The notes below the pieces were generated by a model. The model was not told where the DNA came from and made no database searches. It saw nothing but the letters and a program-made list of their open reading frames with translations. Below are positions 5,123 to 55,443 of a stretch of 64,000 nucleotides of DNA, piece by piece (position 1 is the first letter of the stretch; the number at the start of each line of letters is the position of its first letter). Where the stretch lies: positions 19,927 through 83,926 of the forward strand of contig JAUSEW010000002.1 of NCBI GenBank assembly GCA_030651475.1. Direction: 5' to 3'. The position numbers and the translations under genes were made by a program. The stretch is from Candidatus Levyibacteriota bacterium. GTDB taxonomy: Bacteria; Patescibacteriota; Microgenomatia; Levybacterales; UBA12049.

Positions 5123-5233
5123 AGAAAATTCAAAAATCAAATCTCAAAAATCAAAAATAAAGTTTGTAATATTGGGATTTGTAATTTAGAGTTTATTTAG
5201 GATTTAAATATTAGAAATTAGAATTTAAAAAGT

Positions 5234-5557
5234 ATGAATATAACGTTTGATGAGTTTAAAAAGCTTGATATTAGAGTTGGGAAGATTTTGAGTGCGGAGA
5301 AAATTGAGGGAACGGATAAATTGTTGAAATTGGAAGTTGATTTCTCTGATTTTCGCCGTCAAATTGTGTCGGGAATAGCACAGTTTTATAAACCCGAAGA
5401 TTTGGTTGGGAAACTTTCTCCATTTATTCTTAATTTAGAACCAAGGGTAATGCGTGGAGTTGAAAGTCAGGGAATGCTTATGGCAGTTGATGTTGATGGC
5501 AAAGCAGTGCTTTTGAAACCTCTCAAAAAAGTCCCCGCAGGAAGTGCGATAGGATAA
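5234..5557 (+). CDS. tRNA-binding domain protein (CsaA/Trbp111-like)
   Basis: KLDIRVGKI...SQGML EMAP/Myf-type tRNA-binding fold. Confidence 0.7.
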   Translation: MNITFDEFKKLDIRVGKILSAEKIEGTDKLLKLEVDFSDFRRQIVSGIAQFYKPEDLVGKLSPFILNLEPRVMRGVESQGMLMAVDVDGKAVLLKPLKKVPAGSAIG

Positions 5558-27323: not shown

Positions 27324-28109
27324 ATGACAATGCGACACATTGAAAGCAAAGAAGGATTAGGAGAATTCGTTGGGGATCCCAATGGCGATAAAGCCAAATT
27401 AGCAATAACTCTCATAGAGGGCGCAAGAAAATGGAGGGAGACATTTGGAGATATTTCTTTGCCATCTGTTACAGCTTCAGTTGAAGTAAAACCATTTTCT
27501 CCAGAAGCAGTTACTAATTATTGGCGAACAAAATTACAAGCAGATGGTAAAAGAATAGGACTTTCTATTTCCGTGCCAGATTGTAGTTGGACAGAAGCAG
27601 AAATAAGAAAGCCAATGGTAGATGTTAAAGGAAACGAAGTTCCTTCAATGTTAGTTTATGTTCCGCAAGAGCTTATGGGAAAAGAAGGATTAGTAAGATT
27701 AGGACAGATGTATCCAAAGATGAATAACTGGTCTGTTCAAGAAGACACTAGCGTGCAAAATAGTCCTGATGCAAACAAAAAAGGCGGATGGGTTAAAGTA
27801 GAAGCAATTGTTGATGCCCCAAATCTTAATACTACTCAGGAAGATCTTGAACAGCATGCCAAAGATAAAAAATATTTCGCACAAACATTAAATACTTTTA
27901 TTCTTGCTTCTCAAGCAAATAAAGATTTAACAGGACGTTACTTAGATGAAGGATCGACATGGTCTCGTTTGCTTGGTTCTCGTCGCGCGAGCGGTGTGGT
28001 TCATGCCGACTTCGGTTCGGGTGGGTACTTGTTTGTCGGTTGGGGTCTGGGTCCGCAGGGTCACGGTTCGGGCATAGGCGGGCGTTTTGAAGAAGTGAAG
28101 AAAGCTTAA
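27324..28109 (+). CDS. DGR variable (target) protein, C-terminal CLec/FGE-like variable region
   Basis: C-terminus carries the VR (..GSTWSRLLGSRRASGVVHADFGSGGYLFVGWGLGPQGHGSGIGGRF..). Confidence 0.8.
   Translation: MTMRHIESKEGLGEFVGDPNGDKAKLAITLIEGARKWRETFGDISLPSVTASVEVKPFSPEAVTNYWRTKLQADGKRIGLSISVPDCSWTEAEIRKPMVDVKGNEVPSMLVYVPQELMGKEGLVRLGQMYPKMNNWSVQEDTSVQNSPDANKKGGWVKVEAIVDAPNLNTTQEDLEQHAKDKKYFAQTLNTFILASQANKDLTGRYLDEGSTWSRLLGSRRASGVVHADFGSGGYLFVGWGLGPQGHGSGIGGRFEEVKKA
27971..28097 (+). repeat. DGR variable repeat (VR)
   Basis: 127 bp aligned to the TR without gaps. 26 of 28 mismatches are at TR adenines. Confidence 0.85.
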
Positions 28110-28430
28110 ACCTTTGCCTCTTTGTCCTTTTAGCTCCTTTGACTTTCGTTTTTTTATAGTCCTCCCAAACTATTTTATGCTACAATACTCCTGAGAGTAG
28201 GTTAATACATTCTTAAGCTAAGACTTTAGAATTACCGAAATCCTTGATTTTCAAAATTTTGTTCGATTTCTGTTGTTTATGGATAACAGAAGAATACAAA
28301 AGAAAAACAAGACACTTCTTGCCTAATGCTTGCGAAGATGTCCTGAGCTTGTCGAAGGACTACTTCCAAATAAAATACAACAGTAAGAGTAATCAAACTG
28401 TGGTGGTAATTGATGGCATAAGGCAAAAAA

Positions 28431-28557
28431 GCTTGGTTCTCGTAACGAGAGCAATGTGGTTAATGCCAACTTCAATTCGGATGGTAACTTGAATGTCAAT
28501 TGGAATCTGAATCCGCAGAATCACAATTCGAACATAGGCGGGCGTTTTGGAGAAGTA
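28431..28557 (+). repeat. DGR template repeat (TR)
   Basis: AAY-codon-rich (Asn) copy: ..NVVNANFNSDGNLNVNWNLNPQNHNSNIGGRF.. Confidence 0.85.
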
Positions 28558-28564
28558 GCTTGTT

Positions 28565-28861
28565 TTAAATTTGAGTTAATGATCTTTTCCATCCTCCAAG
28601 CATCCTGCCAACTTCTTGGAGGAATTGTTCTAACTGTAGATATTTATTATTGTCAAGAGATTGAACATCTTTAGCCAGTCTGAGCAATATCTTTAAAAGA
28701 TCTAATGAGATGATAGCTTTTTCAAGATAAAGAAGCTTTTTGTCTTTCTGACTTGTTCCTGCCATAAGGATTAGTTCGAAAATTGTAAGCGTTAGACTAT
28801 CCAGCTTTTGTCCTAAAGTGTAGCGGTCTTTTTTGGGGAAAAGCTTCAGGTATCCATACAA
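28565..28861 (-). CDS. avd: accessory variability determinant (Avd), four-helix-bundle family
   Basis: C-terminal EVGRMLGGWKRS matches Bordetella phage Avd EVGRILGSWIAR, and FPKKDRYTLGQKL is the helix-2 signature. TTG start. The frame stays open upstream through the (AC)n tract. Confidence 0.75.
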   Translation of the reverse strand: MYGYLKLFPKKDRYTLGQKLDSLTLTIFELILMAGTSQKDKKLLYLEKAIISLDLLKILLRLAKDVQSLDNNKYLQLEQFLQEVGRMLGGWKRSLTQI

Positions 28862-28911
28862 TAATTTGTAGAAATCATAGAATCTTTGAATAAGAGGTAT
28901 GTCAAAGTCAG

Positions 28912-28932
28912 GTGTGTGTGTGTGTGTGTGTG
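28912..28932. repeat. (GT)10 dinucleotide microsatellite between divergent avd and RT
   Basis: GTGTGTGTGTGTGTGTGTGTG. Confidence 0.9.
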
Positions 28933-28947
28933 AATATCTTTATCTGT

Positions 28948-30012
28948 ATGCATATTGATACATTCGACGGTGCCGAGCACCGCTCAGTATCAACCCTGAG
29001 CGAAGTCGAACGGGTTGATTATTCCAAGCTTATCTCAATAGAAAATTTATTTCAAGCATGGAAAGAGTTTAGAAAAGGAAAAGCTAAGCGTTTTGATGTT
29101 GCGGAATTTGAAAGGAATTTAGAAGATAATTTATTTGAATTACATTTAAAATTGAAAAATAAAAGTTATAAACATGGAGGTTACGAATCATTTTATGTTC
29201 ACGACCCAAAACAGCGGCATATTCATAAAGCAAGTGTTATAGATAGGGTAGTTCATCATCTGCTTTACACCTTTTTGTATAAGTTGTTTGACAGAGTATT
29301 TATTTATGATTCCTATTCCTGCAGACTTAATAAAGGAACCCATAAAGGAGTAAAGAGATTAGCGGAACTTACAAGAAAAGTTTCTAAAAACTATACAAGA
29401 CCTTGTTTTGCTTTAAAATTAGATATTAAAAAGTTTTTTGCCAGCGTTGACCATGAAGTTTTACTTACCTTACTTAAGAAAAAGGTTAAAGATAAAGATA
29501 TTATTTGGTTGTTAGTACAGATAATCAATAGTTTTTACTCGGATAAAGGAGAAGGGAAAGGAATGCCTCTTGGCAATTTAACCAGTCAGGTTTTTGCCAA
29601 TATTTACCTCAATGAACTTGACCAGTTTACAAAACATAAGTTAAAAGTAAAATATTATCTTCGTTATGCAGATGATTTTCTGTTTTTATCAAAGAATAAA
29701 GAGTTATTGTGTAAATATATTGACGTATTAAGACAATTCCTGAGCAACGGACTTAAACTTGAACTTCATCCTAATAAGATTATCTTTCGTAAATTAGAAT
29801 GGGGAATTGATTTCTTAGGCTACATAGTTTTACCTCATTATATTTTGCCAAGGACAAAAACTAGAAAAAGGATTTTTAAAAAATTAAAGGAAAATGTTGG
29901 TTCAGAAAACTTTAATCAATCCTTGCAATCCTATTTAGGATATTTAGGGCATGCCAGCAGTTTTAAAATAGCCCAATCTCTACTTTACTTTTACCAAAAA
30001 TATAGCTTATGA
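28948..30012 (+). CDS. DGR reverse transcriptase
   Basis: N-terminus ENLFQAWKEFRKGK resembles Brt. GNLTSQVFANIYLNELD carries the DGR SQ motif. RYADDFLFL is the YxDD motif. Start could instead be GTG 28912. Confidence 0.85.
   Translation: MHIDTFDGAEHRSVSTLSEVERVDYSKLISIENLFQAWKEFRKGKAKRFDVAEFERNLEDNLFELHLKLKNKSYKHGGYESFYVHDPKQRHIHKASVIDRVVHHLLYTFLYKLFDRVFIYDSYSCRLNKGTHKGVKRLAELTRKVSKNYTRPCFALKLDIKKFFASVDHEVLLTLLKKKVKDKDIIWLLVQIINSFYSDKGEGKGMPLGNLTSQVFANIYLNELDQFTKHKLKVKYYLRYADDFLFLSKNKELLCKYIDVLRQFLSNGLKLELHPNKIIFRKLEWGIDFLGYIVLPHYILPRTKTRKRIFKKLKENVGSENFNQSLQSYLGYLGHASSFKIAQSLLYFYQKYSL
28990..29018. repeat. palindromic element (family 1, inverted orientation) within the RT 5' region
   Basis: TCAACCCTGAGCGAAGTCGAACGGGTTGA. 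Confidence 0.65.
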
Positions 30013-50712: not shown

Positions 50713-50856
50713 AATATATTTTGACGGTAGAAAATAGAATGTAGAATATGGAACATATGAAGATAGAAGATTGAGGATGGATTATTAAGAGAATTTCTAA
50801 TTTCTATTTTCCAGTTTCAAATATCTATCTTCTAGTTTCCATCATCTACCGTCTAG
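50713..50856. promoter_or_regulatory. AT-rich intergenic region with imperfect long inverted repeat (GACGGTAGA arms)
   Basis: ..ttgacggtagaaaatagaatgtagaat.. / ..ccatcatctaccgtctag.. Confidence 0.35.
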
Positions 50857-52992: not shown

Positions 52993-54135
52993 TTATAATT
53001 CAATAAGTTCTCTTGAGCAACGGGTTAAGAAGCGGGGACCGGATTTTCCTAGGACTACCAAATCTTCAATTCTTACCCCTCCAAATCCGGGAATGTAGAT
53101 CCCCGGTTCTATAGAGAAAACCATATTTTCTTTTAAAATATCTTTCGAAAGGGGAGAAAGGCGAGGAGATTCATGTACCTCAAGGCCAATGCCGTGGCCA
53201 AGAGAATGAGGAATTGTCGGGAATCCTTTCGTAGTAATATAATCTCTGGCGATTTTATCAATTTCGGATGCCTTTATTGCTAATTGCTTCATTGTTAAAT
53301 TGTTTAATTGCTGAATTGCTTTTTGCTGGGCTTCTAGAACCGTTTGGTACATCTTTTTAAATTCTGCATTTGCAGAACCAAAGAAAACGGTTCTTGTCAT
53401 ATCGGAACAATAATTATTCAGTTTCACGCCAAAATCCAGCAATACGATTTGGTCTTTAGCCGTTAGTCTTTGGTCGCTAGCTTGATGGTGGGGGACAGAA
53501 GAATTTTTTCCAAAGGCAACGATAGGAGGAAAAGATATATTAGCCCCCTGTTTTTTGATAAAAAATTCTATTTCAAGGGCAATTTCTTTTTCACTTATTC
53601 CTTCTTTTATTTTCTTTAAAACATATTCAAAAGCTTTGTCTCCCAATTCGCATGCTTTTTCAATTTTAGAAATCTCATCAGGCGTTTTAACGCTTCGTAG
53701 ATTCGAAATACTTAAATGATATATATTATTAAAGTATTTTGACAGCCTTTTGTGTTCTAGAAAACTAATATTGTGACCTTCGAATCCTAATCGTTTTATG
53801 TTATTTTTTTGTGTAAGATTTTTTATTGCTTCTCCAAAAGAAAGTTTTGAAGAAATTTCAATAAGTTCAAAATCTTTGACTTGTTTTTTAACGGCTTCAG
53901 AATATCGCCCATCGGTAAGAATATACCCCAAAACCCCAGGGGTTCCGTGCGTCAACCCCTGGGGTTGAGCCACGATTAAAAGGAAAGCTTCCCGTTCATC
54001 CTTGGAGAAATTGGAAAATCCTGTTAGGTAAGTAATGTTAGGAACGGAGGAAATGAGTAGTCCGTCAATGTTCTTATTTAGCATTAAACTTTTTAAATTT
54101 AAGAGACGATTATTCATAAATTTAACATGTTTCAT
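52993..54135 (-). CDS. pepP: Xaa-Pro aminopeptidase (M24B)
   Basis: HGLGHGIGLEVHE and pita-bread fold motifs. In-frame palindromic insertion near the N-terminus. Confidence 0.85.
   Translation of the reverse strand: MKHVKFMNNRLLNLKSLMLNKNIDGLLISSVPNITYLTGFSNFSKDEREAFLLIVAQPQGLTHGTPGVLGYILTDGRYSEAVKKQVKDFELIEISSKLSFGEAIKNLTQKNNIKRLGFEGHNISFLEHKRLSKYFNNIYHLSISNLRSVKTPDEISKIEKACELGDKAFEYVLKKIKEGISEKEIALEIEFFIKKQGANISFPPIVAFGKNSSVPHHQASDQRLTAKDQIVLLDFGVKLNNYCSDMTRTVFFGSANAEFKKMYQTVLEAQQKAIQQLNNLTMKQLAIKASEIDKIARDYITTKGFPTIPHSLGHGIGLEVHESPRLSPLSKDILKENMVFSIEPGIYIPGFGGVRIEDLVVLGKSGPRFLTRCSRELIEL
53932..53966. repeat. duplicated 13-bp GC palindrome inserted in frame in pepP
   Basis: AACCCCAGGGGTT-ccgtgcgtc-AACCCCTGGGGTT encodes ..QPQGLTHGTPGVLG.. 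Confidence 0.65.
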
Positions 54136-54220
54136 TTTTCATTTATCATTGGTTTCTTCATTTAAGCAATTATTGATTATGTGAATAAATGGTAAATGGT
54201 GTCTGATAAATGATAAATAT

Positions 54221-54961
54221 TTACTTCGTGATTGGAGTTAATTTTTTTCCGCTTCCTGTTGAAGGTATAATTGCCTGATTAGGACTTAATGCTTCTTGGG
54301 CCACGGTAATATTGGGATTTTTGGGAATGTTAGGGAAAATATACAGGTTATTTCCTACAATTATGATATTTTGATTTTCTTTAACTTTGGAAAATCCCAA
54401 ACGCGCAAGCCCTGCGTCTTTGGTATAAGAAAGAATTTTAGTTGTCGTTTCTATGTCAACACTTAGTATTTTATTGCTGTCAGTCGCAACAGAGAAATTA
54501 AAATTTTTGCTGTCAATAGAGATGATTACTCCATGGGTAATAGTTGGAAGAGAAATTACGTTTACGAAACGCCCCAAAAGTCTTCGAGATTCTTTATTGT
54601 ATAGTCCTAAAACCTCCAAGGTGTCACCTTTTGAAATATCGGAAATGCCGAAAGAGCCTTTCGCATTCGGAGAAGAAAACTTAGTTAATTCATCTACGTC
54701 AACAAATCTAATTCTTCCCGCAAGATCGGAAAGGGTAACTTGGGTATTGGACACATCCGAAACTTTGCCGACAATTCCGCGTTTTTCAACCAGTTTTAAT
54801 TGAGCTACTTTAGAGGCGATATTATTGATTAGATCTTGTTTTATTTGATCGGTTGCATTAGGAGTAGGCGTTGCGGCAGAAACAGAAATGAAAAATGAAA
54901 AATGAAAAATGAAAAATAAGGAAAAAAAGAATAAAATAAATTTAGACAAGTTTTTTTTCAT
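54221..54961 (-). CDS. secreted hypothetical protein with repeat-containing signal peptide
   Basis: Hydrophobic N-terminus FILFFFSLFFIFHFSFFISVSAATP. Confidence 0.5.
   Translation of the reverse strand: MKKNLSKFILFFFSLFFIFHFSFFISVSAATPTPNATDQIKQDLINNIASKVAQLKLVEKRGIVGKVSDVSNTQVTLSDLAGRIRFVDVDELTKFSSPNAKGSFGISDISKGDTLEVLGLYNKESRRLLGRFVNVISLPTITHGVIISIDSKNFNFSVATDSNKILSVDIETTTKILSYTKDAGLARLGFSKVKENQNIIIVGNNLYIFPNIPKNPNITVAQEALSPNQAIIPSTGSGKKLTPITK
54886..54917. repeat. heptanucleotide tandem repeat (AAAAATG / TTTTTCA) x ~4.5 in signal-peptide coding region
   Basis: aaatgaaaaatgaaaaatgaaaaatgaaaaat. There is also an A8/T8 tract at 54951-54958 next to the start codon. Confidence 0.85.
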
Positions 54962-54963
54962 AG

Positions 54964-55443
54964 TTAGAATTCCTCCATGGAATAAGTTACAGTTCTGGTA
55001 ATTTTTGTTTCCTCACCGTTGGCCGCGATAGCGGTTATTTCTATAACACTTGATCCGTTACCTAAATTTACCGTTGTTGAAAAATCTCCATTGAGCGATG
55101 GCGAAACAACCTGTTCGAAGTTGTTGGAAATTATTACGATTGTTGCATCCGGCATAGATTTGCCAGAAATAGTCAGCGTTTTATTGTTAACAACGCTTTC
55201 GTCAGCGGGAGTTATTAGATTTAAGAAGATAGATGGTTTTGGCGTTGGAGTTGGTATAGTTATCGCTATCGGCTTTATTTTGGACGAGGGTATAGCTCTT
55301 GTTGTTTGATATATATAGAAGACTATTCCTGCAACTAAAAGTCCGCCCAATATTGCAATAAAAGATAATACAAGTTTTTCTGTTTTCATCTGGGTGCGGG
55401 GTTGATAATACGATAAAAATATCCTCTTGTCAAGGAAAGGCAA
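54964..55443 (-). CDS. hypothetical membrane-anchored protein
   Basis: One TM followed by a Pro/Thr-rich linker. Confidence 0.4.
   Translation of the reverse strand: MPFLDKRIFLSYYQPRTQMKTEKLVLSFIAILGGLLVAGIVFYIYQTTRAIPSSKIKPIAITIPTPTPKPSIFLNLITPADESVVNNKTLTISGKSMPDATIVIISNNFEQVVSPSLNGDFSTTVNLGNGSSVIEITAIAANGEETKITRTVTYSMEEF

Follow-up and report, generated by a model that had tools for sequence, protein, structure and literature searches.

In Neisseria, the opa genes carry CTCTT pentamers within the coding sequence of the leader peptide, and the rate of change in these tracts is ~1e-3 per cell and generation (PMC3745409). The locus described here resembles opa in that a non-triplet repeat encodes the hydrophobic leader of a predicted exported protein, where a change in unit number shifts the reading frame. 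It differs in that its tract consists of 4.6 units of 7 nt, occurs with the same number in the comparable relative and was not found OFF in any of ~160 assemblies, whereas opa tracts are longer, strain-variable and commonly OFF in sequenced genomes.

Heptanucleotide units are known from Haemophilus influenzae, with (TGAAAGA)13-38 in the promoters of hmw1A and hmw2A, (AATTTTG)14 in hmw1A and (AACAACC)1-13 at TonB-dependent receptor genes, upstream of one and inside an HI1369 homologue; heptamer tracts in this species reach 6-38 units and are strain-variable, and truncated ORFs have been observed (PMC2651432). The arrays examined here are like these simple sequence repeats (SSRs) in their 7-nt unit, in the position of some of them inside an ORF and in their frameshift consequences. 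In H. influenzae, however, heptamers are rare exceptions among tetranucleotide SSRs, whereas in the Levybacteria DNA surveyed period 7 is essentially the only array period. In Helicobacter pylori, oipA carries a CT dinucleotide repeat in its 5' region, with ON/OFF status documented in isolates (PMC10564699). It is like our locus in having a slipped-strand repeat near the 5' end of an exported-protein gene, and unlike it in its dinucleotide unit and in the ON/OFF states documented among isolates.

By description, the Levybacteria arrays also recall the cyanobacterial STRR sequences, being short 7-nt arrays that are scattered and share some units between several loci (here ATTAGAA). These STRR (short tandemly repeated repetitive) heptanucleotide arrays were reportedly described by Mazel et al. 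in 1990. They are short 7-nt arrays dispersed in the genome, mostly intergenic, and use a few fixed G+C-containing units. The Levybacteria units, unlike these, are many and A+T-rich and are built into coding sequence in two places. Bacteria of the Candidate Phyla Radiation (CPR) are uncultured and have reduced genomes, and their surface proteins mediate host attachment and phage exposure. To our knowledge, variation of CPR surface proteins is largely unknown apart from diversity-generating retroelements, and a literature search found no paper linking Patescibacteria with slipped-strand variation and none on phase variation in the CPR.

A heptanucleotide array in a predicted signal peptide

The DNA analysed, hereafter the window, is a 64-kb stretch from a Candidatus Levybacteria metagenome-assembled genome. 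A first-pass annotation had reported a heptamer repeat of about 4.5 units in the signal-peptide region of the gene at 54221..54961, and this was correct: the minus strand of 54886..54917 holds (ATTTTTC)4.57, a maximal perfect period-7 run of 32 nt that lies in the hydrophobic core of the signal peptide. The array occupies gene positions 45-76, or codons 15-26 (L15-S26, LFFIFHFSFFIS) of a 246-aa protein, and the 5' end of the gene reads ATG AAAAAAAA C TTG ... CTT(ATTTTTC)4ATTT CTG on the minus strand. TRF assigns the tract a period of 7, 4.6 copies, 100% matches and a score of 64, the joint highest of 50 rows, and a run search recovered it as the sole perfect tandem run in the 64-kb window with a unit of at least 4 nt and more than 3 copies. 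A 21-mer of three units, searched with up to 2 mismatches, has 3 matches in the window against 0.01 expected from dinucleotide shuffles.

The accompanying statement that gain or loss of one unit shifts the frame was borne out in silico, where changes of −1, −2, +1 and +2 units lead to stops after 37, 29, 36 and 44 aa, respectively, and changes of ±3 units keep the focal frame. All three frames are used in reading the 7-nt unit, which gives the peptide a period of 7 residues, here FFIFHFS. The tandem repeat is real and non-random, is of a kind that shifts the frame and lies in the DNA that encodes the signal peptide of a predicted secreted protein.

Directly after the ATG lies an A8 homopolymer (54951..54958, minus strand; codons 2-4, Lys-Lys-Asn; run search), which had been proposed as a second slippage substrate. 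The tract is present after the start codon as described, but it can be ruled out as a special one, being one of 14 A8/T8 tracts in the 64-kb window (none longer than 8) and unchanged in two relatives, L166 and L005 (L-numbers denote loci and P-numbers proteins). A change of ±1 nt in A8 truncates the product in silico. The tract does no more than encode Lys-Lys-Asn, as is the case in most MKK... signal peptides of this family, and for this genome it is unremarkable.

The focal gene and its neighbourhood

The focal ORF (54221..54961, minus strand) encodes the hypothetical protein Q7R31_00485, which belongs to a Levybacteria-wide family with 835 homologues at E<=1e-3. Its match to Pfam DUF5666 (PF18914) is weak, with 17.4 bits against a gathering cut-off of 27 (E = 0.0057), and precomputed PF18914 matches are present on several of its homologues. 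On inspection of the translation, the N-terminus consists of MKKNLSK, an 18-residue hydrophobic stretch (F8-I25) and VSA|A, with TPTP next, and the A-x-A/TPTP junction is conserved family-wide. With these features the N-terminus looks like a Sec-type cleavable signal peptide, and the product is predicted to be a secreted or surface protein. The predicted signal-peptide segment, residues 1-29 (54875..54961, minus strand), is hypervariable and is referred to below as the cassette.

In the AlphaFold model (pLDDT 82), a helix at residues 3-22 is followed by a low-confidence linker, a second helix at 36-55, two beta-barrels (58-136 and 141-209) and a disordered tail that ends in the conserved PSTGSGKKLTPI. 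The best PDB match of this fold is the Mpa/ARC double-OB interdomain, at a low TM-score. The C-terminal tail, (I/T/V)PSTGSGKKLTPI(T/V)K (window 54224-54265), is nearly invariant in all orthologues and is LPXTG-like, but neither the hydrophobic segment nor the charged tail that a sortase signal has is present.

Gene order is conserved, running from a Glucodextran_B protein through the focal gene, pepP and a hypothetical gene to hisS. The upstream partner (54964..55389, minus strand; Pfam, synteny) is co-oriented with the focal gene and encodes 141 aa from its ATG, with an N-terminal membrane anchor and an Ig-like Glucodextran_B domain; 2 nt separate its stop codon from the focal ATG, and it carries no heptamer array. 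Downstream lies pepP (52993..54135, minus strand; ORF, Pfam), which encodes an M24 Xaa-Pro peptidase. Rfam searches of the whole window at gathering thresholds returned one tRNA only.

Period-7 arrays in the orthologous signal peptides

Approximately 165 orthologue loci were recovered, which represent 143 distinct 5' ends, and a segment was counted as an array when at least 20 of 24 positions matched at a given lag within the first ~110-140 nt. Lag-7 arrays are found in 41 of the 143 distinct 5' ends (~30%), in the signal-peptide core, and lags 2-6 and 8-12 yielded 0/143 at the same threshold. Controls for lag 7 gave 0/134 for the membrane anchor of the upstream gene, 0/142 for an internal region of the focal gene and 1/143 for shuffled 5' ends. 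The recurrence of period-7 arrays at the same site in ~30% of relatives argues that this is a real slippage hotspot.

Perfect arrays of 30-35 nt (4.3-5.0 copies) occur in 11 alleles, and 5.0 perfect units is the maximum for the family. Ten of these lie in the hydrophobic core, and the remaining one, in L046 (AAGGCAA), is at the very N-terminus. There are ~20 distinct T-rich units among the 32 longest runs; those in perfect arrays include ATTTTTC (window), TTTACTA, TTACTTG, TTTTTTA, TTGTTAT, TTCTATA, TTACTTA and TTACTAC, and 7-residue peptide periods in the family include LLIVNCS, LLVISY. and LLLTTYY beside the FFIFHFS of the window. The arrays place polar His, Ser, Asn, Cys and Tyr inside the h-region, and polar residues forced into this region point to repetition driven by the DNA rather than by the protein. 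The convergence on T-rich units is itself forced by the coding of hydrophobic residues and is therefore no proof of common ancestry of the arrays. Several contigs that are clearly Levybacteria-like (e.g., L006, L009, and L012) were submitted as “uncultured Gammaproteobacteria bacterium” (TPA_asm binchicken/SRP co-assemblies), a title that is probably a labelling artefact.

Copy number and reading frame among relatives

The first-pass annotation had taken the repeat for a candidate phase-variation locus. The slippage-prone repeat holds up, but its use as an ON/OFF switch is unsupported: the tract has only 4.6 units, and none of the ~160 assembled loci has an out-of-frame (OFF) allele. Assemblies show the majority allele, and OFF subpopulations would be hidden. 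Judged from the assembled sequences, every copy is ON and nothing indicates that the array serves as an on/off switch. Five loci have no recognisable in-frame signal start, four of them at contig ends and one with a signal peptide that contains no Lys/Arg.

Several proteins that looked like products of OFF alleles were set aside. P0135 and P0136 (“MAASIATT...”; 90% clusters) are alternative start calls with DNA identical to the full-length allele, P0106 is an internal-Met gene call and P0122 (L168), on a single rearranged or chimeric 1.4-kb contig, was not counted. L168 (ENA ANAN16-1 scaffold_59309, 1420 nt, ~500-560) is an orthologue of L090 in which everything that precedes the last ~2 heptamer units is unrelated, and its 5' end has no start codon and contains an in-frame TAA. 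The contig reflects either a rearrangement whose breakpoint fell in the array or a chimeric assembly.

Searches for the exact flanks joined by 1-5 units gave 0 matches in metagenome contigs, the exact focal protein had no record in the contig index searched, and protein-guided scans of genomes and metagenomes returned best relatives of 83-91% aa identity and no conspecific. The sole relative with a window-type cassette is L166 (P0130, in the 90% cluster of P0007). Its tract, ATTTTTC GTTTTGC ATTTTGC ATTTTTC ATTTC, has the same copy number as the window and differs from it by 3 substitutions, with flanks that are 85-87% identical and a cassette that is 86-90% identical depending on the alignment. 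Repeated same-species assemblies of other orthologues have identical 5' ends (P0121 was found on 28 contigs).

Comparison of repeat number across related genomes, the check that the annotation had put forward, showed no change in L166, the only relative with the same cassette; one other pair of orthologues differs. L169 and L170, whose flanks are 93-94% identical, carry (ATTTTTT)3.71 and (ATTTTTT)2.71, exactly one unit apart. A +10-nt difference 18 nt upstream compensates for the shift, and a short stretch reads MKQALLIF in one and IFLVYASFA in the other. This pair shows that arrays at the orthologous site do gain and lose units, and the repair of the frame by a different indel, not by reverse slippage, argues against very high switching rates. 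The tract length of 4.57 units, with a family maximum of 5.0 perfect units, compares with 6-38 units reached in documented heptanucleotide tracts (PMC2651432). Set against an opa-type contingency locus, the gene has the non-triplet repeat in the 5' part of its ORF and loses its product in silico when one unit changes, but copy-number variation was absent from the same-cassette relative L166 and natural OFF alleles were absent from ~160 loci.

Mosaic cassettes

The flanks of L166 group with those of L167, L001, and L005, with 94% identity for the upstream gene and 90% for the mature part (90-94% for L167-like flanks), whereas its cassette is window-like (86-90%) and only ~60% alignable to the GTTATTA-type array that these three loci carry. 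The cassettes of L140 and L116 are 90% identical, whereas the flanks of L140 are 85-94% identical to L104 and only 65-78% to L116. Of six close pairs with at least 90% identity in the mature part, three have unrelated signal-peptide DNA. The history of the signal-peptide segment is therefore decoupled from that of its flanks. From sequence comparison, this decoupling could be due to short-patch recombination or to long-lived polymorphism, and that it serves to rescue broken alleles is speculation. Identical array stretches of 29-35 nt are also shared by very divergent orthologues, which is suggestive of lateral cassette transfer but weak as evidence, since the pairs were picked for a shared unit among ~10,000 possible pairs.

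Period-7 arrays outside the focal gene

A survey of array periods covered 749 kb, made up of 147 non-redundant loci and the window, that is, DNA around the focal locus plus one 64-kb window. At a threshold of at least 20/24 matches, lag 7 gave 75 segments, 41 of them in the focal gene and 34 elsewhere, and lag 14, which is a harmonic at twice period 7, gave 31. The remaining lags between 2 and 13 contributed 5 segments at lag 9, 2 at lag 8, 1 each at lags 2, 12, and 13 and 0 at all others. For the window alone, at 18/24 or better, lag 7 gave 8 segments versus 0-2 at other lags. As in STRR-like repeats, period 7 is over-represented relative to all other periods, non-coding DNA included.

About 14 of the non-focal arrays lie in pepP orthologues, in one hypervariable loop and all in frame, and most of the others are intergenic. 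This loop (aa ~275-290) holds arrays or inserts in L001, L005, L025, L040, L046, L061, L064, L101-L103, L129, L131, L134, and L162 as well as in the window (examples of the arrays are LNTKYSILNTIK, INGQLSMVNGQL, and LNSLFMIHNSIP). In the window it contains a degenerate CAATTAA-like array (53272..53321, minus strand; TRF, orthologues), and the loop constitutes a second heptamer hotspot. Another degenerate period-7 array (54185..54218; ATTTATC/ATTTACC on the minus strand; TRF) occupies the spacer past the focal stop codon and is conserved in L006.

At the start of pepP, TRF and a pattern search identified a further period-7 array (54126..54150), built from the reverse complement of the signal-peptide unit with 2 mismatches over the 21 nt searched. 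The inverted relation is coincidental, because the array is also found in L006, whose signal-peptide unit differs. An inversion switch between the two arrays was rejected on the same grounds, and there is no invertase nearby.

Intergenic period-7 arrays include those at 5124-5234 and 50728-50856 of the window, 437-483 of L020, 3867-3906 of L025 and 350-385 of L093. Several genomes and two sites of the window share the unit ATTAGAA/TTAGAAA (window 5210-5231; L020, L025, L093), and some intergenic arrays form inverted pairs (L088 390-460).

The 7-nt unit length is a lineage-wide property of the DNA and not evidence of selection for frameshifting. The earlier argument that the unit length is not divisible by 3 loses its force here, since period 7 is essentially the only array period and is also found in intergenic DNA and, in frame, in the housekeeping gene pepP.

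GC-rich inserts at the arrays

GC-rich in-frame inserts of ~26-33 nt are present inside the signal-peptide arrays of L140, L088, L010, L135, and L011, with units on both sides. The L140 array corresponds to that of L116 plus CTTGCCCCTCGAAGCCTTGGCGAAGTGGGG, and the L010 insert resembles a hairpin beside the reverse transcriptase of a diversity-generating retroelement in the window (described below). In other species the pepP loop contains in-frame GC-rich hairpin inserts that encode HLGGGRMDSSEV, SERSEESP or LRPQDDG. These share a conserved stem, CACCTCGGAGG...CCTCCGAGGTG, and occupy the same loop as the arrays.

Origin and maintenance of the arrays

We consider it somewhat probable that the tract belongs to a class of lineage-wide, slippage-prone heptamer arrays, tolerated in the weakly constrained h-region, with the gene kept ON by purifying selection. 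A DNA-level process in Levybacteria, likely replication slippage or unit duplication, would produce tandem arrays almost exclusively of period 7, and these would persist where constraint is weak, as in intergenic spacers, the h-region of the signal peptide and a single surface loop of PepP. Where the DNA is coding, frame-keeping states alone would survive, and the gene would be inactivated by a change of ±1 unit. Such events do take place over evolutionary time, and the frameshifted alleles would then be eliminated, revert, acquire a second, compensating indel or be replaced through short-patch recombination by the cassette of another lineage. The locus would thus be a mutational hotspot held ON by purifying selection rather than a demonstrated contingency switch. 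That slippage generates the arrays and that selection keeps the gene ON are both points that we infer.

Several features would equally be expected of an opa-type contingency locus, where slipped-strand mispairing in the heptamer would frequently turn the secreted protein ON and OFF and confer a bet-hedging advantage, for instance against phage or in host-cell contact of a probably episymbiotic bacterium. The unit is not divisible by 3 and changes of 1-2 units truncate the product at 29-44 aa, the position in leader-peptide coding sequence matches Neisseria opa (PMC3745409), and arrays at one site in 41/143 orthologues, across a phylum-level lineage and in a predicted secreted protein, have the look of a contingency locus. 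Lineages carry internally homogeneous arrays of different units, one close pair is exactly one unit apart, and the cassette mosaicism could reflect rescue of OFF alleles. Phase-variable genes are often OFF in sequenced genomes, however, and no OFF allele appeared in ~160 assemblies. The tract has 4.6 units only in a family whose maximum is 5.0 perfect, copy number is identical in L166, repeated same-species assemblies of other orthologues are identical, the frame of L169/L170 was restored by an indel other than reverse slippage, and like arrays lie in frame in the cytoplasmic PepP and in intergenic DNA, all of which leave high-frequency switching an unlikely account of the locus. Rather less probable still is an origin of the arrays as footprints of, or favoured targets for, small mobile GC-rich hairpin elements or their transposase instead of ordinary polymerase slippage, for example as 7-bp target duplications left by cycles of insertion and excision. 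Both coding hotspots carry in-frame GC-rich inserts, clearly palindromic in pepP, where the CACCTCGGAGG...CCTCCGAGGTG inserts occupy the array loop; in L140, L088, L010, L135, and L011 the insert inside the signal-peptide array is flanked by units, and the exclusive 7-nt period suggests an enzyme with a fixed stagger. Any insertion into an array would nevertheless leave units on both sides, and the pepP hairpin, which many species retain, may go back to one old event. Neither a transposase nor a copy of an element was identified adjoining the locus, and no target-site duplication was demonstrated. Selection on the protein for a signal or anchor helix with heptad periodicity, with the DNA repeat as a secondary consequence, would agree with 7 residues making about two helical turns and with the widespread peptide periodicity in the family, but it is very improbable given the perfect nucleotide identity from unit to unit (synonymous positions included), the polar His/Ser/Asn forced into the h-region, the same period in intergenic arrays and the lack of any array in the neighbouring membrane anchor. 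Chance low complexity arising from T-rich hydrophobic codons, in a signal peptide rich in Phe/Ile/Leu and a genome of 36-40% G+C, has practically no likelihood against 3 matches where 0.01 are expected, 41/143 versus 1/143 in shuffled 5' ends and no other lag. Both heptad selection and chance are effectively excluded.

A more far-reaching reading, which we regard as a tentative and rather doubtful possibility, is that in Levybacteria a process that is highly specific, if not dedicated, writes short arrays of exactly 7-nt units into permissive DNA, and that at one conserved gene for a surface or secreted protein they form the signal peptide, a cassette that is self-renewing and laterally exchanged, with frameshifts that produce low-frequency ON/OFF variants. 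If true, the CPR would gain its first described SSR-type contingency locus, or its first STRR-like system. The site is conserved and phylum-wide, with a signal peptide literally built from a 7-nt microsatellite, and the mutational signature is sharply period-specific. The locus is an example of how signal peptides may arise and turn over via repeat expansion and, whether or not switching is adaptive, it offers a concrete place where read-level indel counts can test phase variation in the CPR.

A retroelement elsewhere in the window

A diversity-generating retroelement occupies 27324-30012 of the window, with its variable repeat (VR) at 27971-28096, its template repeat (TR) at 28431-28556 and a reverse transcriptase ORF at 28912-30012 (RVT_1, Pfam E = 1.2e-22). 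One copy of the 126-nt repeat pair is at the 3' end of ORF 27324..28109 and the other 460 nt downstream, and 25 of the 27 mismatches between them fall on adenines of the second copy. Between the template repeat and the conserved part of the reverse transcriptase ORF lies a perfect (GT)10.5 (28912-28932), the sole di- or trinucleotide run of at least 5 copies in the window, and 3' of this run is the GC-rich hairpin CAACCCTGAGCGAAGTCGAACGGGTTG (~28994-29020).
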